Shown one piece after another: positions 1,369-42,361 of a stretch of DNA of 43,691 nt. Each line of letters opens with the position of its first letter. The stretch's first letter is position 1. Location: the IMG/VR virus record IMGVR_UViG_2645727945_000025, positions 1 to 43,691 of that record; one strand, 5' to 3'. The DNA comes from a virus (taxonomy: Duplodnaviria > Heunggongvirae > Uroviricota > Caudoviricetes). A program made the position numbers and the translations under genes. The notes beneath the pieces were generated by a model. It was not told the origin of the DNA. It ran no database searches and was given only the letters and a program-made list of their open reading frames with translations.

Positions 1369-1444
1369 GCCGATATAGCTCAGTTGGTAGAGCAGCGCAT
1401 TCGTAATGCGAAGGTCGTAGGTTCGACTCCTATTATCGGCACCA
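1369..1444 (+). tRNA. thrW: tRNA-Thr (anticodon CGU)
   Basis: 76-nt sequence GCCGATATAGCTCAGTTGGTAGAGCAGCGCATTCGTAATGCG...GGCACCA folds as a cloverleaf with CGT anticodon and encoded CCA; classic phage integration target. Confidence 0.9.
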
Positions 1445-3723: not shown

Positions 3724-4008
3724 TTATTCAGTGCTGATATTTACCTTTATAGCGAACACCTTTACCGGTTTATCGCCGAAGTGCGGATGTGTGATTGTCT
3801 TGATTTCATATCCGTCATACGGGACGTCAATTCTGCGACTGAAGTCTTCGCGCTTCGGATATCCCTTTGTGATAATCAGGCGGTCATACTTACGGTTAAC
3901 GAGGCGCTTATTCCAGTAGTCATTACACAGGCGATACTCTTCCGTTTTCTCCCCGCGAATCATGGCATCGAAGTATTCACCTTTAACGGCAAGTTGCAGG
4001 TTAGCCAT
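3724..4008 (-). CDS. Hypothetical protein, ASCH/PUA-like by motif
   Basis: Track ORF; start at Met8 with GGAGG RBS and TAATG stop-start overlap with upstream gene. Confidence 0.5.
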   Translation of the reverse strand: MANLQLAVKGEYFDAMIRGEKTEEYRLCNDYWNKRLVNRKYDRLIITKGYPKREDFSRRIDVPYDGYEIKTITHPHFGDKPVKVFAIKVNISTE

Positions 4009-4268
4009 TACCGCACCTCCAGTCTCCATACCGCCTGACCAATCCGGCTGGCATAGGTATCTTTGGATACTGCTCCGTCTTTAGCCAGCTCCATAAGAAT
4101 TTTGCGCAAATCTGCCGAACGCCATTCTTCATCAGGAAATTCCTTCTCCATTGCCAACCGCAGATTCCAGGTTGCCATCCTGAATGGATATTTCCCGCCG
4201 AGAGCTTTATCTTGCAGGGCAGCCCGGGAACGCATCACCTGCAAAACCTTCTCTTTTACATCCATCAT
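4008..4268 (-). CDS. Hypothetical early protein (86 aa)
   Basis: Track ORF, translationally coupled to neighbours. Confidence 0.5.
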   Translation of the reverse strand: MMDVKEKVLQVMRSRAALQDKALGGKYPFRMATWNLRLAMEKEFPDEEWRSADLRKILMELAKDGAVSKDTYASRIGQAVWRLEVR

Positions 4269-34232: not shown

Positions 34233-36235
34233 TGAAAGTAACTGCAAACGGTAAGACATTTACCTTTCCTGATGGTACGAGCACCGAAGATATTGGCACC
34301 GCCATTGATGAGTATTTTGCTGGACAGTCAGCGCCAACACAACAAGGTGTTCAGCAATCGCCAGCAGACAACTCACTTGCATCAGGATATGCACAGCTTG
34401 CCACTCAGCAGAAGGAAGGACTAGATCGCTCTGCTGAGCAAGGGGCTGTTTTAGGTGCTGCAATGCGCGATGCCGTTACCGGTGAAAGCCGAATGACACC
34501 AGAAATGGAGAGACTGCAAAATGTTGGGTCTGCTCCAGAGCTTAATAGCTTAAGCACTGATGCGCTGCGTGCTGGATTGGGGCAGCTATTTGGTTCCGAC
34601 GCTTCACAGGAGAAAATACTGCAAAGTATTGGCGGGAAAATCCGGAAGGATGAGAAGGGAAATTCCATAGTCACCCTTCCTTCAGGGGAATATGCACTTA
34701 ACAAGCCTGGTTTGTCACCGCAGGATATAACGTCATTCTTGGCAAATGCTCTTGCATTCACTCCAGCAGGTAGAGCTGCGTCTGTTGTAGGTGCAACACT
34801 AAAATCAGGCGCTACTGATTTAGCTTTACAGGGTGCCACTAAGATCGCTGGCGGTGAGAATGTTAATCCAGTTCAAACTGCAATTTCTGCTGGACTTGGT
34901 GGGGTACTGAAGGGTGTAGAAAACACCGCAAGCGCAGTGTCTCGCTCTGCTATGGGTAAGATTGCTCCTGAAAAACAAGCTCAGATTGACTTTGCCAAGC
35001 AGAACAACTTGCCACTGATGACAACAGATCTTGTGGAACCGGGAACAAATATTGGTAAGCAAGCACGAGCTATGGCTGAGCGAATCCCAATAGCCGGAAC
35101 AGGTGGGATAAGAAATGCACAGCAAAAGGCCAGGGAAGATTTAGTTAGAACATTTAGCGATAATGTTGGCGGAATATCTGACGCACAACTTTACCAATCA
35201 GCTACTCGTGGTCAGCAGCAATTTATTCAGGCTGCTGGCAAGAGGTACGACAGGATCATCAGTTTGATGGGGGATACTCCTGTTGACATCACTGGAACAG
35301 TGAAAGCAATTGATGAGCAGATTTCCAAGTTAACTCGCCCAGGAGTATCGCAAGACCGCTCAGCTGTTTCTGTCCTTCAACAGTTTAGAAATGACATCAC
35401 CAGCGGTCCAAATAACCTGCAATTAGCTAGAGAAAACCGCACAAACTTACGTAAGCGCTTTATGGCAGCACCTGACGAGGTCGATAGAGATACGCTGGAG
35501 AAAGCTGCGCAGTCTGTTTATAACGCATACACAACAGACATGAAAAAAGCGGTTGGCGCAAAACTAGGTGCGAAGGAAGCGCAAAACATGTCGCGTGTTG
35601 ATCGTTCTTGGGCAAAGTTCAACGACATGATGAGCAATACACGTGTCCAAAAAGCTATTCAGAGTGGTAAAACAACGCCAGAAGATGTCACTAAACTAGT
35701 ATTCAGCCAAAGCCCAGCGGAAAGGGCGCAACTTTATAGATTGCTTGATGATAGTGGGCGTCAAAATGCTAGAGCAGCACTTGTTCAGCGTGCAATGGAT
35801 AAGGCGACAAGCGATTCAGGAAAGCTTAGTGTTGAGAAGTTTATTAATGAAATGAAAAGGAATCGGAAGCAGGCTGAGACGTTCTTCAGAGGAGAGCATG
35901 GGAAACAGCTTGATGGGATAATGAAATATCTTGATTCCACTAGACAGGCAGCTACTGCTGCCGCAAGCCCACTGACAGGGCAAATGGTAGCTGGTCCAGC
36001 AGCGCTGATAACAGCTCTTGCGTCTGTTACAAATCCAATGTTTGCAAAAGTTGCGGCAGTTGGAGCTGGTATCGGTATGGCTGGCAGGGGCTATGAGTCA
36101 CGCGCGATGAGGAACGCATTACTAAAGTTAGCAAACACGCCAAAAGGAAGTACTGCTTATGATAGAGCGATCAGACGGGTATCTGAAACTCTTACACCTC
36201 TAATTCAGGCTTCAAGTGAGAAAGCCCAGCAGTAA
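34229..36235 (+). CDS. Ejection protein (P22 gp16-like, 668 aa)
   Basis: Synteny and size; last gene of the plus-strand virion operon. Confidence 0.8.
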   Translation: MMKVTANGKTFTFPDGTSTEDIGTAIDEYFAGQSAPTQQGVQQSPADNSLASGYAQLATQQKEGLDRSAEQGAVLGAAMRDAVTGESRMTPEMERLQNVGSAPELNSLSTDALRAGLGQLFGSDASQEKILQSIGGKIRKDEKGNSIVTLPSGEYALNKPGLSPQDITSFLANALAFTPAGRAASVVGATLKSGATDLALQGATKIAGGENVNPVQTAISAGLGGVLKGVENTASAVSRSAMGKIAPEKQAQIDFAKQNNLPLMTTDLVEPGTNIGKQARAMAERIPIAGTGGIRNAQQKAREDLVRTFSDNVGGISDAQLYQSATRGQQQFIQAAGKRYDRIISLMGDTPVDITGTVKAIDEQISKLTRPGVSQDRSAVSVLQQFRNDITSGPNNLQLARENRTNLRKRFMAAPDEVDRDTLEKAAQSVYNAYTTDMKKAVGAKLGAKEAQNMSRVDRSWAKFNDMMSNTRVQKAIQSGKTTPEDVTKLVFSQSPAERAQLYRLLDDSGRQNARAALVQRAMDKATSDSGKLSVEKFINEMKRNRKQAETFFRGEHGKQLDGIMKYLDSTRQAATAAASPLTGQMVAGPAALITALASVTNPMFAKVAAVGAGIGMAGRGYESRAMRNALLKLANTPKGSTAYDRAIRRVSETLTPLIQASSEKAQQ

Positions 36236-36243
36236 AAAGTTGG

Positions 36244-36588
36244 TTAGCGGTTGATGGTTGCTTTTTTCGGGTCATACCATCTCGGCCATTCTTTCAGGAA
36301 TGGGAATGAGTCAGGTGCGTGGTTCTTTTTGTACGATTTAAGCAGCCTTAACCGCTCAACCGCACACTCATAAACCTCTTGTTGCCCTGTAGTCATCTCG
36401 GTCCATGAAAGGTGATCCATTGATAAGACAACGTTTTCAGCTTCTTTTATGAGGGCGTTTTTATTTCTCACCGCAGCAGCATGGCTGACAGAGCAATCCT
36501 GCCATATTCTTAAAAGCCAAATAGCCAAGCAGATGAAAAAAATGGTAGATAGCGATATATACACACCAACCTCCTTAGTTTTGAGCAT
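36244..36588 (-). CDS. Single-pass membrane protein (114 aa), moron in the sieA slot
   Basis: Track ORF; N-terminal hydrophobic helix VGVYISLSTIFFICLAIWLL; AT-rich; opposite strand to the virion operon. Confidence 0.5.
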   Translation of the reverse strand: MLKTKEVGVYISLSTIFFICLAIWLLRIWQDCSVSHAAAVRNKNALIKEAENVVLSMDHLSWTEMTTGQQEVYECAVERLRLLKSYKKNHAPDSFPFLKEWPRWYDPKKATINR

Positions 36589-36617
36589 GACGAAATTAAC
36601 CAGCCATCAGGCTGGTA

Positions 36618-36800
36618 TTAGTCACATTCTATTTCTTTTGTCGAGGTCCATACATAAGGGTCTGAGCAAACAACCTCACCATTTATCATGACGTCATAGC
36701 CCATTAGATATGAGTTACCACCAACAATCTGAGCGGCTATGACGCTAATGCTGGCGGCGCAGGCTGCACCAAAAACGAAACCAATTAATATATTTTTCAT
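36618..36800 (-). CDS. Small secreted/periplasmic miniprotein (60 aa) with signal-peptide-like N-terminus
   Basis: Track ORF; [17 protein letters not shown] then a Cys-containing mature part. Confidence 0.4.
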
Positions 36801-36831
36801 TTTAATTCCAAATAGTTATAGGATGAAAGTT

Positions 36832-37017
36832 ATGACCATAGAAGAACGTCTGAACAACATTGAGTTGAACCAAACCCTGCTTGACCAGCGACTTTCAGAT
36901 CTTGAGCTTAAAGATCTAGATGCGCAAATATCAGAAGCAGAAGCCAAGCTCTCCAGCCTAAACCACCGCAAGAAGCAAATCCGCAACAGAATTACTCAGG
37001 GACGCGGAAGCTGTTGA
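36832..37017 (+). CDS. Possible coiled-coil miniprotein (61 aa), convergent with the mnt-operon ORF
   Basis: Internal ATG of track ORF 36739-37017 with AGGA RBS; low-complexity heptad-like sequence. Confidence 0.3.
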   Translation: MTIEERLNNIELNQTLLDQRLSDLELKDLDAQISEAEAKLSSLNHRKKQIRNRITQGRGSC

Positions 37018-37201
37018 GGTGGGATGCTAGGTCTCTATCGTTAAAATCAAGGCTGCTAATCATTTCATTGTAGATGGCGTTTTTATCTTCCATTGGCAGT
37101 CTTGAGTAAACCAGACACAGAGCATATTTCAGGGAGTTTAGCTCTTTCTCTAGCTCTTCCTTGCTTGACGTTTTTGACTTAATAAACTGTTTTTTATTCA
37201 T
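36992..37201 (-). CDS. Hypothetical 69-aa protein translationally coupled to mnt
   Basis: Start adjacent to the mnt stop with AAGGA RBS inside the mnt 3' end. Confidence 0.45.
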   Translation of the reverse strand: MNKKQFIKSKTSSKEELEKELNSLKYALCLVYSRLPMEDKNAIYNEMISSLDFNDRDLASHLNSFRVPE

Positions 37202-37434
37202 TTTGCATCCTTACCATACATGGTTTTCAGTGTTTCAAGTAGCGCATCCCTGAATTTGTCAGCCTCTTTCTGAGCAAATTCATTGCTATTAAGCGATCTA
37301 CCACAAACAGCATCTTCGATAATCTGTATTATTTCAGCATTCATGGAACGCTTGTTATGTTGCGCCCTGGCTTTAACCTTTGCCTTTAACTCTTTGGAAA
37401 TCCTGATATTTATTTGCGGCTCTTCGCGTGACAT
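37198..37434 (-). CDS. mnt: Mnt-like ribbon-helix-helix maintenance repressor
   Basis: N-terminal RHH sequence resembling P22 Mnt (..RISKELKAKVKARAQHNKRSMNAEIIQII.DA); divergent from arc. Confidence 0.75.
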   Translation of the reverse strand: MSREEPQINIRISKELKAKVKARAQHNKRSMNAEIIQIIEDAVCGRSLNSNEFAQKEADKFRDALLETLKTMYGKDAK

Positions 37435-37487
37435 ACCACCTCCATAGCATTTTGGTGATATTACTATTGCATCACTGCGATCACAAT

Positions 37488-37504
37488 GGTATAACGGTTA
37501 TACC
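37488..37504. promoter_or_regulatory. 17-bp perfect palindrome GGTATAACGGTTATACC in the mnt-arc intergenic region (candidate operator)
   Basis: Read directly; located between the divergent RHH repressor genes. Confidence 0.45.
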
Positions 37505-37522
37505 AAATTGATTGGAGGTAAT

Positions 37523-37696
37523 ATGATAGTCAAGTCAGACGCACCAAAGTACCCTTTGCGCATCCCATTAGAGGTTAAGTTAGCAATCGAGAAGTCAGCG
37601 AAAGAAAATGGTCGCTCAATAAATACCGAGATGGTAATGCGGTTAGTGGATAGTTTAAGGCGGGATAGTTCTAAAGGTAATCTAGCAAAAAGTTGA
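37523..37696 (+). CDS. arc: Arc-like ribbon-helix-helix repressor (57 aa)
   Basis: GGAGG RBS; RHH motif ...PLRIPLEVKLAIEKSAKENGRSINTEMVMRL; directly upstream of ant. Confidence 0.7.
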   Translation: MIVKSDAPKYPLRIPLEVKLAIEKSAKENGRSINTEMVMRLVDSLRRDSSKGNLAKS

Positions 37697-37726
37697 AGCC
37701 CCAACTGCTGTAACAGTCAGGGCTTC
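37695..37726 (-). terminator. sar-like antisense terminator in the arc-ant intergenic region (approx.)
   Basis: GAAGCCC/GGGCTTC stem; only on the minus strand is it followed by a T-run (AACTTTTTGC). Confidence 0.4.
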
Positions 37727-37758
37727 GGTATCAACAAAACTTACGAGGTATTATTGAT

Positions 37759-38649
37759 ATGTCAAGCTTAGCAAAGTCAACTGTAAATTGCACTAATAGC
37801 ATCATCATTTCTGACGTCAAGATTCATATGGATTCAGAGGGTCGTTACTCGCTTAATGACCTTCATGTAGCGTCTGGAAAGGAGGAAAAACATCAGCCAG
37901 CTTTCTTCATGCGTAGAAATGAAACTATTGAATTGATTAATGAAATTTTTAATTCTGCGGATATGCAGAATAAGAATCCCGTCCTTTCTAAGAAAGGTAG
38001 ATATGGTGGAACCTACGTGTGCAAGGAGCTTGTTTACTCCTACGCCATGTGGATTAGCGCAGCCTTTGCGCTGAAGGTTATCCGTGCATATGACGCAATG
38101 GTTACTACCACACAAGAGAGGAAGGCTATTGGCGGTAAAACTTCAGTAGCTGAACGCACACCGCTACGCGATGCAGTAAACATGTTGGTAGGAAAGAAAG
38201 GACTTCGCTATGACGATGCATACAATATGGTTCATCAGCGTTTTGGTATTGACAGCATTGATGAACTTTCAATTGAACAAATCCCGCTGGCCGTAGAGTA
38301 CATCCACAGGGTAGTGCTTGAAGGTGAATTCATCGGCAAACAAGAGAAGAAAACCAACGAGCTTTCTGCAAAAGAAGCAAACAGCCTTGTATGGCTATGG
38401 GATTATGCCAACCGCTCACAGGCATTATTCCGCGAACTGTATCCGGCGCTGAAACAAATTCAATCGAACTATTCCGGCAGATGTCATGACTGCGGTTATG
38501 AGTTCTCCCGTATTATCGATATAGCGAGAGACGTTTTAATCAATCACTCACGAGATGTTGATATCAATGAGCCAGACGGACCAACGAATCATTCCGCATG
38601 GATGAGACTTAAGAATAAAGAATTACCTCCTTCAGTACATAACTACTGA
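37759..38649 (+). CDS. ant: Antirepressor Ant (296 aa)
   Basis: Size and position after arc; KilA-N-like N-terminus. Confidence 0.85.
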
Positions 38650-38667
38650 CAGATAACCAACGCAACG

Positions 38668-38692
38668 ACCCAGCTTCGGCTGGGTTTTTTTA
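38668..38692 (+). terminator. Intrinsic terminator after ant
   Basis: ACCCAGC-TTCG-GCTGGGT hairpin followed by TTTTTTTAT. Confidence 0.6.
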
Positions 38693-38749
38693 TGCCCAAA
38701 ATTCACCGTAGCCATGCTGCGGCGATTCCTTGTATCTGGAGCAAATTAA

Positions 38750-40885
38750 ATGACAGACATTACAGCCAATGTGATCGTATCGATGCCTTCGCAACTCTTC
38801 ACTATGGCTCGTTCTTTTAAAGCCGTAGCCAATGGAAAAATTTATATCGGTAAAATTGACACTGACCCGGTAAATCCTGAAAACCAGATTCAGGTTTATG
38901 TGGAGAACGAAGACGGCTCTCACGTTCCTGTATCGCAGCCAATCATCATTAACGCTGCCGGATATCCTGTATATAACGGACAGATTGCCAAATTCGTAAC
39001 TGTGCAAGGCCATTCTATGGCTGTTTATGATGCATATGGGGCGCAGCAGTTCTATTTTCCTAATGTGCTGAAGTATGACCCTGATCAACTCAGGTCTGAA
39101 TTATCAGCTCAGGGTGGAGATAAGATTGTTGGTAGTTCGTATGGCGGAACCGTCTATACAGACTACAGTCCATCAGAATTCATTAAGTTTGCAGAATTCA
39201 CCGTCCCAACAAGTCTTTCAAACAATAGACAAGCCGTTAAATATATAGACGGATTTTGGTATGTATGGAATGGAACATTTCCATACAATACTGGAACGTC
39301 AAATCCTGGTAATAATGACACATGGAAATGCGTTGGACTTCTAAATGGTTTTTCGGTTAATGACGCTCAGAACTTTGGCTTCACAGGGGGTATGGACGAT
39401 GCACTTCCAGCGCTAAATGCGATGATTAGAAGCCCATTTTTTGAAATGTTTTTCCCTATTGGAAGTGAAATTAATATTTCGTCTGACTGGAATCTCCGTT
39501 CAAATTTATATATAAACTTTCACGGTTCAACAATCAACTGGATGGGTGCTGCTTTCTCAAGTTCTGATGTTGTGAATGGTAGCGAGATGGCTATTTTAAA
39601 TACGCCAAATTTTTCAGGTGGAACTACAGGGGCACTCGTAAACCTTCATCTGTCAAACTTAAATATTAAAGCAAATGATTACGCAATAGGCATAAGTGCA
39701 AGGAATATTACAAATTTCTCTATAGAGAATGTTTATGTAGAGAAAGCGCAACGTCAAGGAATTAATGTATCTAATTGCCAGAATGGATGTATTAATCAAA
39801 TAACTCTGAAAGATTGCTCTCCTTTATCTGATAAAGGATTTACTAGTTCACAGCTAGAGAGTTGGGGCGATGGATTGATTGTATGGTATGGAAGCACTAA
39901 CGTATCCATTGATAACATTAGAGTTGAATCAGGAAATAATTCACGAGGAGGTCGCTGCGGTATCTGTATCGATGGTTATGCTCCATCCGGAAAGCCAGAT
40001 TCACGCAATATTTCTGTAAATAACGCTTATGTTTACGGTTATGACAGGCCTATACATACCGAACTATGCGGTATTGTTACCGTAACTAACAGTGTTTTCG
40101 AATACAACTCAGGCTCTGACACGCATCACTTTTTGCAATGTGGTGTCGTCGTGTGGAATGTCCTTGAAACCACTACTTTTATCAACTGCACGTTTCGCAC
40201 AGATATGCGGTTTATGAAAAACTCAGGCGCTAAGGCGAAATTCATAAAATGTAATGTGTACAAAACATCAAGCACTGAGCCTATGTTTATAACAGGTACA
40301 GAGCAAACAGGTATAGTTAATTTTGATGACTGCTTACTTTCTCATGCCGGTGGTGAATGGGGGGCTTGGAACTGTTCATTAAGTTTTAATGGTTGCACGA
40401 TATCATCTGATTCTGCTGGATCTGTTATTAATTTTGGTAGCGAATCCATACCAAAAAATATCACTATTGTTAATTCACATCTGTTAAACACATCAATATC
40501 AGCACTGTTCGCACCTGGATTTACTGAAATTCATCTTTCTAATTCAACAATAAATGGAGATGTTAATTGCGGACCTTCTGCCAGACTTCGTGTAAATTCA
40601 TGCGATATATATGGAGTTGTTACATGCAATAGTGTAATGAGATACAACGGACAGAAACCAAATAAATTAATTTATTTGCAAAATGCAGACCAGCAATACA
40701 ATGGCATGTGGCTAGGAACGCGCCCACCACTAGGTGCTAGACCAGATGGATCTGGAGATTGGTTGAGGGGTGATATAGTTTTTAATCTCGACGCCATAGA
40801 GTCAACACCATTCCAATGGTATTGCGTAACCCCAGGATCGCCTGGAAGATGGGCTGTATCTGGAACTCTTGGCGCAGCTTCTTAA
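38750..40885 (+). CDS. Tailspike (P22 gp9-family head-binding N-terminus plus divergent receptor-binding domain), 711 aa
   Basis: N-terminal ~115 aa recalled as the conserved P22/HK620/Sf6 head-binding domain; remainder AT-rich with repetitive beta-strand-like segments. Confidence 0.9.
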
Positions 40886-41137: not shown

Positions 41138-41201
41138 ATTCGTAATGCGAAGGTCGTAGGTTCGACTCCTATTATCGGCACCATTTAAATCAATAAGTTA
41201 C
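41138..41201. repeat. attR of prophage 1 and attL of prophage 2: second 64-bp core copy with tRNA 3' fragment
   Basis: Identical to 1399-1462; the 5' tRNA half is not reconstituted here (no GCCGAT acceptor strand upstream). Confidence 0.85.
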
Positions 41202-42361
41202 ACATCATTAGTACCTTCCTTATTTTTTGACTGGGACAAATTTGGGACCGATGGGTTCAGAATCGAGTCTATTTGCCGTGCGTGTTCGGTAAGGTGATTA
41301 GGCGCGAGGTGAGCATATCGACGAACCATTTCGATAGACTCCCAGCCACCCATTTCCTGTAACACTGACAACGGGACTCCGGCTTGAACCAGCCAACTTG
41401 CCCAGGTGTGTCTCAAGTCGTGAAATCTGAAATCATCAATACCAGCTCGTCTCAGCGCCGCTTTCCAGGCTGTGTTTGCGTCATACCGCATCTTCCTTAC
41501 TGTTGGCGCTTTCGTTCCGTCTGGTTTGGTACAGCTTTCCTTGTACACAAATACCCAACGGTGATGATTCCCGATTTGTTTTTTCAAAACGCGACATGCA
41601 GTATCATTCAGCGCAACGCCGATTGCGCGGTTTGATTTACTCTCTTCCGGGTTTATCCATGCCACCCGGCGCTGCATATCTATTTGTTGCCATTCAAGGT
41701 TGATGATGTTCGAGCGTCTTAAACCTGTTGCCAGTGCAAATTCAACAACAGACTTTAATGGCTCCGGACATTCATCAATCAGCCTTTGTGCTTCATGGGG
41801 CTCCAGCCAGCGGATCCGTTTATTCTTTGGTTGAGGCACTTTAATAATTGGTGCCTTATCCAGCATTTTCCATTCACGCTCTGCGGCTCTTAGTAGGGCC
41901 TTTATAAATGAAAGATGCGTAGCCTTCGTTGCAACGGACGCTGGTTTTGGCGTGTATTCTGGAACAGGTTTCCCTTTTTTTCTGCATGCTTCTGCCCTGA
42001 GTTTCCAGTTTTCCTCATGACGCCGGTTCGTCATTTTCTGCATTGCTGAATAAATTTTTGATTCAGTAATGTCTCTTAGTTGCATTCCTGCGAAATGTTG
42101 AAGCCAGAATCCGATCCGGCTTTTGTCATCGTCCAGTGATTTTTTATGTGCTTTCTCTTCAAGCCACCTGACACACGCTTCCTCGAACGTTATATCAGGT
42201 ATTTCACCAAGTTTGCTGACCCGCCATGCTTCAGCCTTTAGCTTGTCATGGAGTTCTGTCGCCTGCCTTTTGTCCTTTGTTCCAAGAGACTGTTTAAATC
42301 TTTTACCGTTCGGCAATGTGAAACTGGCGTACCATATTTCACCTCTGCGGAAGAGTGACAT
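41198..42361 (-). CDS. int: Tyrosine integrase of prophage 2 (P22 Int-like, 387 aa)
   Basis: Recalled close similarity to P22 Int ([33 protein letters not shown]...); stop inside the att core. Confidence 0.95.

Follow-up and report, generated by a model that had tools for sequence, protein, structure and literature searches.

Small uncharacterised cargo genes, one of them in the sieA slot, in the ant moron of a P22-like prophage

Which genes occupy the place of sieA, the superinfection-exclusion gene of phage P22, in a P22-like prophage that lacks it, and what would they do in the lysogen? The window examined here is a stretch of 43,691 nucleotides (nt), positions 1 to 43,691 of the virus record IMGVR_UViG_2645727945_000025, and it is a P22-like (Lederbergvirus) prophage of E. 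coli at thrW. Within it, the segment 36244-37434 corresponds to the variable portion, outside immI, of the "ant moron", which lies between gene 16 and the tailspike gene. The ant moron of P22-like phages was named by Villafane et al. 2008; it is highly variable, and its functions have been studied in P22 only (PMC2629481). A first-pass annotation of the window had presented the region as a candidate undescribed module. This does not hold, as the ant moron's variability is described in the work just cited and the families found here are catalogued as PHROGs. What the slot holds is cargo of uncharacterised function within a variable hot spot that was known before; it does not amount to a new kind of system. 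New points include the replacement of sieA by the gene orf106 precisely at the start codon, the status of orf61 as a real gene on the late strand, and the reality of orf60, which had been hidden beneath a RefSeq open reading frame (ORF) extended too far.

Judged by sequence conservation, four small genes rather than three are real in the slot: orf69, orf60 and orf106 on the minus strand, and orf61 on the plus strand (Table 1). The three minus-strand ORFs that the first-pass annotation placed between the end of gene 16 (36235) and the repressor gene mnt (37198-37434), at 36244-36588, 36618-36800 and 36992-37201, were all recovered. So was its convergent plus-strand ORF of 61 amino acids (aa) at 36832-37017, a real gene that overlaps the 3′ end of orf69 by 26 nt. 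Purifying selection acts on all four. The ratio of nonsynonymous to synonymous substitution (dN/dS) is 0.03-0.22 for orf69, orf61 and orf60; for orf106, where dS is saturated and dN is 0.24-0.40, the support is the conservation of the protein. Each ORF belongs to a PHROG of unknown function, and the protein families extend across E. coli, Salmonella and Citrobacter and span 48-84% identity.

That the ORFs are chance or decaying frames in an AT-rich spacer might be suspected from their shortness, their lack of Pfam matches and their inconsistent annotation, with RefSeq often omitting orf60. The segment is AT-rich, as had been claimed: the G+C content is 0.38-0.44 in the 36244-37434 region vs 0.45-0.51 in the virion genes. 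Such frames would not be expected to show the low dN/dS values just given, nor to keep their lengths in variants that match the window at 76-82% identity over this block of DNA (five such variants were compared for orf61 and orf69), nor to belong to families in three genera while the alternative frames carry stops. The substitution patterns refute this reading for all four genes, and we regard it as vanishingly improbable. Only two frames are spurious, a minus-strand 56-aa ORF (36816-36986), which carries stops in relatives, and a 92-aa extended form of orf61.

The gene beside gene 16 is orf106. The first-pass annotation gave its product 114 aa, the length of the maximal ORF. The start is most likely GTG 36564, for a protein of 106 aa, because a perfect AAGGAGG (36576-36570) lies 5 nt upstream, the homologues start MYISL and RefSeq calls a gene of 321 nt. 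In DNA alignment the translation-initiation region of orf106 (Table 1) is common to P22 sieA and to the gene Kapi1_059 of phage Kapi1, and the P22 sieA coding sequence (NC_002371) begins at the equivalent GTG, translating VSDSMSYAV.... By this alignment orf106 replaced sieA exactly at the start codon, a single expression slot having had its cargo swapped right after the GTG. The location is also that of sieA, between genes 16 and 9 and beside gene 16. The first-pass annotation assigned all three minus-strand ORFs to the sieA slot; P22 sieA does lie at the same position, but orf106 alone fills the slot proper. Neither orf69 nor orf60 is a substitute for SieA, because both co-occur with SieA elsewhere. 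In locus L008, PF26849 (SIEA) is found by precomputed annotation on a 212-aa protein downstream of mnt, orf69 and orf61, and in locus L016 a similar 212-aa protein with the SieA motif FnRYPnEAnnFNK stands beside orf60 and orf61.

By every sequence comparison made, none of the slot genes is sieA and the window is without it, in agreement with the first-pass view that these products are not SieA. Profiles of orf106 and orf60 aligned to P22 SieA and to the 212-aa protein of L008 with hhalign probabilities of <1%, and the positive control, P22 SieA against the L008 protein, gave E = 2e-25. The comparison thus covered SieA of type A (P22) and of type B (E. coli prophages). A tblastn search with three SieA proteins against the whole window returned nothing below E = 0.1. 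The FnRYPnEAnnFNK motif, present in all three control SieA proteins, is absent from the six frames of the window. SieA occurs in 22 of 66 P22-like phages and falls into types A-C, with the motif predicted to be cytoplasmic (Leavitt et al., mBio 2024). The multi-pass architecture of SieA (164-212 aa) is not found in the slot either, where orf106 has one transmembrane (TM) helix, orf60 a signal peptide only and orf69 no hydrophobic segment. Pfam, NCBIfam and PADLOC scans of all ORFs yielded nothing meaningful for the slot genes, with PADLOC giving only weak coiled-coil noise for orf61, and PDB sequence searches with the slot proteins gave no match. The local Pfam-A copy was without PF26849 (SIEA) and PF26808 (Phage_P22_gp16), so that Pfam negatives for these two families are uninformative; the precomputed annotations do include both. 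The homology check set beforehand, by profile, PDB and fold comparisons, gave no clear match to SieA or to any characterised protein.

The orf106 product carries one N-terminal hydrophobic helix (KD19 hydropathy 2.05, TM helix at residues 3-21), as the first-pass annotation had noted. In every member of the family there is no positive charge before the helix and a net charge of +1 to +4 in the next 15 residues. Since the positive-inside rule holds across the family, orf106 is predicted to be a single-pass inner-membrane protein in N-out/C-in orientation with its domain in the cytoplasm. Two of the three minus-strand products (orf60 and orf106) are predicted envelope proteins, as had been proposed. 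The envelope placement of orf106 stands as regards the predicted inner-membrane anchor, but its domain is predicted to be cytoplasmic, not periplasmic. This C-terminal domain of ~80 aa is helical, with the conserved pattern LSW..M..Q..Y.CA.ERL..L.SYKKNH.P...WP. The AlphaFold2 (AF2) model, with a predicted local distance difference test score (pLDDT) of 84, contains a long helix spanning residues 13-56, another helix at 67-85 and a conserved tail rich in Trp and Pro.

The orf106 family is tiny: it forms 14 clusters when the threshold is 90% identity, and at 50%, in a set of 1.84 billion representatives, there are 12. The gene is present in 57 of 5,426 complete E. coli genomes. In its relatives the gene always closes an unbroken string led by mnt, as the one next to gp16; it is convergent with gene 16 and preceded by a gap of 33-45 nt (in L023 the order is mnt, 45 nt, orf106). 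In N7, HZ41 and prophages of Shiga toxin-producing E. coli (STEC), orf106 stands alone beside gene 16. In the window its end is separated by 8 nt from the stop of gene 16, which is on the other strand, and no intrinsic terminator folds between the two. A distant relative, mEp043_049 (98 aa; L019 2432-2728), shares 36% identity over 58 aa (pairwise E = 1e-12) and the same architecture of an N-terminal TM helix and a helical domain. It lies immediately downstream of cI in a lambdoid siphovirus, in a rex-like position of the kind classically expressed in lysogens.

Like P22 sieA, orf106 is on the minus strand beside gene 16 and convergent with it, and has the same ribosome-binding site and GTG; its product is predicted to lie in the inner membrane with the conserved part in the cytoplasm, like the motif of SieA. 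It differs from SieA in having one TM helix rather than several and 106 aa rather than 164-212, and it is without the motif or any sequence similarity. The relatives of orf106 and orf60 also stand directly after a repressor gene (mnt; cI in mEp043), as do the lysogen-expressed genes rexAB of lambda and 44/45 of epsilon34, whereas the slot products are far smaller than Rex and show no homology to it.

The product of orf60 is a predicted secreted small protein, which bears out the signal-peptide-like N-terminus described in the first-pass annotation. The sequence MK, then 18-19 hydrophobic residues (KD19 hydropathy 2.36) and V/I-A-A before Q, is that of a predicted Sec export signal, and for the near-identical Kapi1_060 the GenBank annotation gives signal residues 1-22 by DeepTMHMM. 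The signal peptide (about residues 1-22) is variable, and the mature peptide of 38 aa is highly conserved, ends EIECD and has two invariant cysteines, C45 and C59. orf60 probably encodes a secreted, disulfide-bonded periplasmic peptide of ~38 aa. The family spans 48-98% identity, most members are 60-61 aa long, and dN/dS against the Citrobacter homologue is 0.07. An exclusion lipoprotein of the Cor or Llp type was considered and rejected. We conclude that orf60 is not a lipoprotein because Cys14 in the signal peptide is not conserved, homologues having T, A, S, V, I, F or L in its place; no lipobox precedes it.

orf60 is found in 36 of the 5,426 E. coli genomes and is always accompanied by orf61 in the E. 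coli contexts examined. In Citrobacter (L020) an orf60 homologue directly follows mnt, its start overlapping the mnt stop, and relatives at 52-55% identity lie in other mobile contexts that are not P22-like. No conserved partner gene of orf60 was found, its neighbours being different in every context. Between the orf60 stop and the ribosome-binding site of orf106 the RNA folds into a hairpin (Table 1) of -17.2 kcal/mol (z = -4.75, none of 200 shuffles as good), followed by a weak U-tract. It is kept together with orf60 in Kapi1, and the scanner made no terminator call there. The hairpin may serve in weak termination, in attenuation or in stabilising the mRNA. For neither orf60 nor orf106 did a convincing promoter come to light.

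As the first-pass annotation stated, orf69 begins at the mnt stop with a ribosome-binding site inside mnt: its ATG (37201-37199) and the TGA of mnt (37200-37198) overlap to give ATGA, and GGTAAGGA stands upstream. The overlap is kept in every relative examined, with three different mnt alleles, and this conservation implies that orf69 and mnt are co-translated from one mRNA. In phage Emek another gene lies between mnt and orf69. Among the five variants, dN/dS of orf69 is 0.03-0.14 and its antisense frames carry stops. The protein is hydrophilic, with three predicted helices (pLDDT 77), and its predicted structure gave no informative fold match. orf69 is present in 74 of the 5,426 genomes. We also considered whether it is a homologue of P22 orf59a; although the position is the same, there is no sequence similarity and the assignment was rejected.

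Judging from its substitution pattern, orf61 is a fourth real gene and not a by-product, and it stands outside the minus-strand string. Its dN/dS is 0.05-0.22, its length of 61 aa is exact in the variants, its antisense frames carry stops in relatives and its 26-nt overlap with orf69 is conserved. The homology block common to diverged relatives begins at the start codon of orf61 and reaches into the 3′ end of mnt. The protein keeps a C-terminal Cys, within a CxxC in three of the five variants, and has no hydrophobic segment. With 130 of the 5,426 genomes, orf61 is the most widespread of the four genes, and in some genomes it is found without orf69 or orf60. RefSeq/PGAP often calls a 92-aa plus-strand ORF here, sometimes as "hemolysin XhlA family protein", and omits orf60 opposite. 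This longer form (36739-37017) was rejected, its 31-aa N-terminal extension being not conserved and its start codon lost in the Citrobacter relative; the 92-aa model looks like a recurrent mis-annotation. Membership of XhlA (PF10779) was not supported, as orf61 scored 14.1 bits against a cut-off of 34.7 and the 92-aa form had no XhlA match.

The first-pass annotation treated the slot genes as a single module. This was not borne out, as the four genes occur together in 2 of the 5,426 complete E. coli genomes (region 36236-37440, the four genes and mnt, at least 80% covered) and orf61, on the other strand, splits the string. On their distribution the four genes are independent mosaic cassettes. 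Among relatives at the DNA level, E. coli prophages stand nearest, along with the phages Kapi1, N7, HZ41 and Emek; E. coli CT02 (NZ_CP081698) is 99% identical across the whole region. Kapi1 shares orf60, orf61, orf69 and mnt at 98% DNA identity, and its gene Kapi1_059 is replaced by orf106 in the window.

The strand layout of the window is identical to that of P22, 16> <sieA hkcC> <59a <mnt arc> ant> 9>. The window and the P22 ant moron thus have in common the order of slot gene or genes, plus-strand gene, post-mnt gene, mnt, arc and ant; they differ in that each non-immI gene is unrelated, orf61 being unlike hkcC in sequence, and in that orf60 and orf106 stand where P22 has one slot gene. P22 (L018) has a 125-aa plus-strand ORF (3850-4227) between sieA and orf59a, which is unannotated in NC_002371 and is presumably hkcC. 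This ORF has an HECAH (HExxH-like) motif, matches at 99% identity a gene annotated in a prophage of enterotoxigenic E. coli (ETEC; L015 2330-2695, plus strand) and occupies the same relative position as orf61 in the window. The pid ORFan locus of P22 is irrelevant here, as it sits elsewhere, between orf25 and orf80.

Other cargo of the hot spot is mostly envelope protein, namely SieA, candidate lipoproteins (recognised by eye), proteins with signal peptides, and proteins with a TM helix and a coiled coil. Between mnt and the orf106 homologue, N7 ORF15 (L002), L024 2554-2886 and L025 1933-2367 encode coiled-coil proteins with a C-terminal hydrophobic tail and a tail-anchored look. In Emek (L003 1602-2475, plus strand) two overlapping ORFs of 149 and 161 aa are followed by an annotated terminator and then by orf61. 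This pair, which by eye may resemble a toxin-antitoxin or defence pair, lies in the same hot spot.

The flanking genes give the context of the segment. The ejection-protein genes gp7 and gp20, with Pfam domains, and the tailspike gene, with a P22 head-binding domain, enclose 36244-37434, and the insertion of mnt, arc, sar and ant between gene 16 and the tailspike, in synteny with P22, identifies the ant moron and immI. mnt is the first gene of the minus-strand string. The arc ORF is listed from TTG 37508; ATG 37523 is the likelier start, with GGAGGT 4 nt upstream, and the resulting 57 aa agree with the 174-nt RefSeq Arc gene of identical prophages. An Rfam scan of 35800-39000 found nothing but sar, which lies outside 36244-37434, and the sar terminator hairpin was the sole terminator-like site called by the scanner in 35900-38000. 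The putative promoters Pmnt and Pant overlap face to face, with a candidate operator palindrome over the Pant -10, an arrangement that parallels the annotated Pant/Pmnt and operators of P22. At the prophage end, an aldehyde-dehydrogenase-family host gene adjoins the tRNA gene. A second integrase gene (41198-42361, minus strand) lies just past the tailspike gene and suggests that the site holds a further integrative element in tandem.

Table 1 Positions of the genes and sites discussed, numbered on the window
Feature	Position	Strand	Remarks
tRNA-Thr(CGT)	1369-1444		thrW; prophage end; adjoins integrase gene
integrase gene	1459-2619	-
gene 16 homologue	ends 36235		668 aa
orf106	36244-36564	-	most likely start; maximal ORF to 36588 (114 aa); phrog_10450
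translation-initiation region	36562-36590	-	CATGC(T/A)CAAAACTAAGGAGGTTGGTGTG; common to orf106, P22 sieA and Kapi1_059
hairpin	36599-36616	-	ACCAGCC-TGAT-GGCTGGT then UAAUUUCGU
orf60	36618-36800	-	predicted secreted small protein; phrog_37095
orf61	36832-37017	+	61-aa coiled coil; late-operon orientation; phrog_7586
orf69	36992-37201	-	small cytoplasmic three-helix protein (predicted); putative first-position cargo of mnt operon
mnt	37198-37434	-	mnt-like Arc/MetJ-family maintenance repressor, 78 aa; Pfam Arc PF03869, E = 6.8e-13; P22 mnt position and synteny
Pmnt, putative	37458-37486	-	TTGTGA 37486-37481, 17-nt spacer, TAATAT 37463-37458; by eye
Pant, putative	37467-37495	+	TTGCAT 37467-37472, 17-nt spacer, TATAAC 37490-37495; by eye
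candidate operator palindrome	37488-37504		GGTATAACCGTTATACC; perfect 8-1-8 inverted repeat over Pant -10
arc	37523-37696	+	from ATG 37523; Pfam Arc
sar antisense RNA	37691-37757	-	Rfam RF00262, 67.4 bits, E = 4e-13; between arc and ant
ant	37759-38649	+	P22_AR_C and KilA-N domains

What might these genes do? Taken as a whole, the explanation that we favour, tentatively and at somewhat less than even confidence, is that the cargo of the ant moron is expressed in the lysogen under the lead of Pmnt and that orf106 and orf60 serve exclusion or conversion at the envelope. A leftward transcript from Pmnt, possibly joined by weak internal promoters, would pass through mnt, orf69, orf61 in antisense, orf60, the hairpin and orf106 and end opposite gene 16. 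The products of orf106 and orf60 would then work in exclusion or conversion at the lysogen's envelope, orf106 standing in for SieA, and orf69 would be a cytoplasmic accessory of the mnt operon. In P22, PLate transcription crosses the ant moron to reach gene 9 (PMC2629481), and orf61 would most likely be expressed likewise, by late-operon read-through toward the tailspike gene. An envelope role in the lysogen is pointed to because the sieA slot is exact, the relatives end repressor-led operons and the hot-spot cargo is mostly envelope protein.

The envelope exclusion proteins T4 Imm, Sp, HK97 gp15, P1 Sim and the Cor/Llp lipoproteins are small, have a signal peptide or a single TM helix, as predicted for orf60 and orf106, and stop DNA entry at the inner membrane or in the periplasm. 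The exclusion of incoming phage DNA is the most economical guess for the slot, albeit one that we place on the unlikely side. The narrower proposal is that orf106, alone or with orf60, constitutes a superinfection-exclusion determinant that is new and not related to SieA. Having acquired the expression slot of sieA, it would keep P22-like phages from delivering their DNA at the inner membrane, by means of a single-pass protein that faces the cytoplasm. This proposal appears doubtful to about the same degree or a little more so.

Several observations weigh against the favoured explanation. Co-transcription with mnt and expression in the lysogen, as the first-pass annotation had suggested for orf69, are consistent with the coupling kept in relatives and with the mnt-led strings, but in RNA-seq of Kapi1 lysogens mnt was undetected above threshold in LB or SIF (PMC12922286). 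Because this undetected mnt is 98% identical to that of the window, expression from Pmnt in the lysogen can only be inferred. Kapi1_059-062 are absent from the list of undetected genes in the same study (PMC12922286). The consensus scanner found no promoter or terminator reaching threshold within the slot region or at Pmnt/Pant. The proposed transcript would have to cross the convergent orf61, and a fraction of it may stop at the hairpin before orf106. Like transcription from Pmnt and the secretion of orf60, membrane topology is a matter of prediction, and that of orf106 comes from the positive-inside rule only. No fold or sequence link of the slot products to exclusion proteins was found. A function tied to P22-type ejection proteins is also argued against, both by the orf106 relative in the siphovirus mEp043 and by the orf60 relatives in contexts that are not P22-like.

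Kapi1 gives weight to a different reading, namely that the minus-strand genes are lysogen morons that change host physiology (lipopolysaccharide (LPS) or O-antigen, envelope stress, gut fitness) and could include the O-antigen factor of Kapi1. Kapi1 lysogens alter their O-antigen, and the causal gene was not found among hyp5, hyp19, hyp24 and hyp25 (PMC8787464). By our own count, which goes beyond that paper, Kapi1_059-062 fall outside this tested set, and Kapi1 combines the unexplained conversion with orf60, orf61, orf69 and mnt almost identical to ours. In addition, a deletion construct of hyp19 was toxic outside the lysogen, for which its authors blamed a flanking hypothetical protein (PMC8787464). 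hyp19 is probably the gene 16 homologue beside the slot; the genes that flank hyp19 include the Kapi1 counterparts of the slot (Kapi1_058-062, MT813197). Some seroconverting phages are known to encode small membrane peptides that inhibit the polymerase of the O-antigen (epsilon15 iap, cited in PMC8787464). Set against this, the carriers of orf60 have different tailspike receptor-binding domains and include Citrobacter prophages and elements that are not P22-like, so that the gene is not tied to one O-antigen. The slot proteins show no similarity to a glycosyltransferase, an acyltransferase or a Wzy or Wzz partner, and the window has only part of the Kapi1 slot, with orf106 in place of Kapi1_059. 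We consider this reading improbable, and its variant in which orf60 or a neighbour is the missing gene of Kapi1 conversion less likely than exclusion by orf106.

No more probable is a regulatory role, in which orf69, perhaps with orf61, would be an accessory of immI that modulates Mnt, Arc or Ant, as a small helical protein of the cytoplasm produced in stoichiometry with Mnt, or in which the overlap of the two genes would balance leftward transcription from Pmnt against rightward late read-through into the tailspike gene. The strict coupling of orf69 to mnt across three mnt alleles, the homology block and the conserved 3′ overlap would fit such a role; antisense control by sar is already present in the P22 region, and modulation of the late read-through that reaches gene 9 has been proposed for the ant moron (PMC2629481). 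Yet orf61 is found without orf69 (130 vs 74 genomes), many P22-like phages, P22 included, run immI without either gene, and in Emek an extra gene separates mnt from orf69. Lower still we place the reading that the genes would merely use the hot spot and serve, inside the cell, in defence against phages or in anti-defence, after the manner of abortive-infection or toxin-antitoxin systems. The possible toxin-antitoxin look of the Emek pair and the rex-like position of the mEp043 gene after cI would suit it. PADLOC, however, matched none of the three minus-strand proteins, and the slot products are very small and without enzymatic motifs, two of the three being predicted to be envelope-targeted.

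sieA is carried by about a third of the sequenced P22-like phages, and for those without it the content of the slot has so far been unstudied. The mnt-led string seen here collects small proteins, predicted to be envelope-targeted, as interchangeable cassettes. If orf106 does act as an exclusion determinant, the slot next to gene 16 in P22-like prophages would serve as a site at which mechanistically different injection blockers are swapped. The genes described provide a short list of candidates for exclusion or conversion, partly in common with Kapi1, which converts the O-antigen of its lysogens and is associated with a gut-colonisation phenotype.

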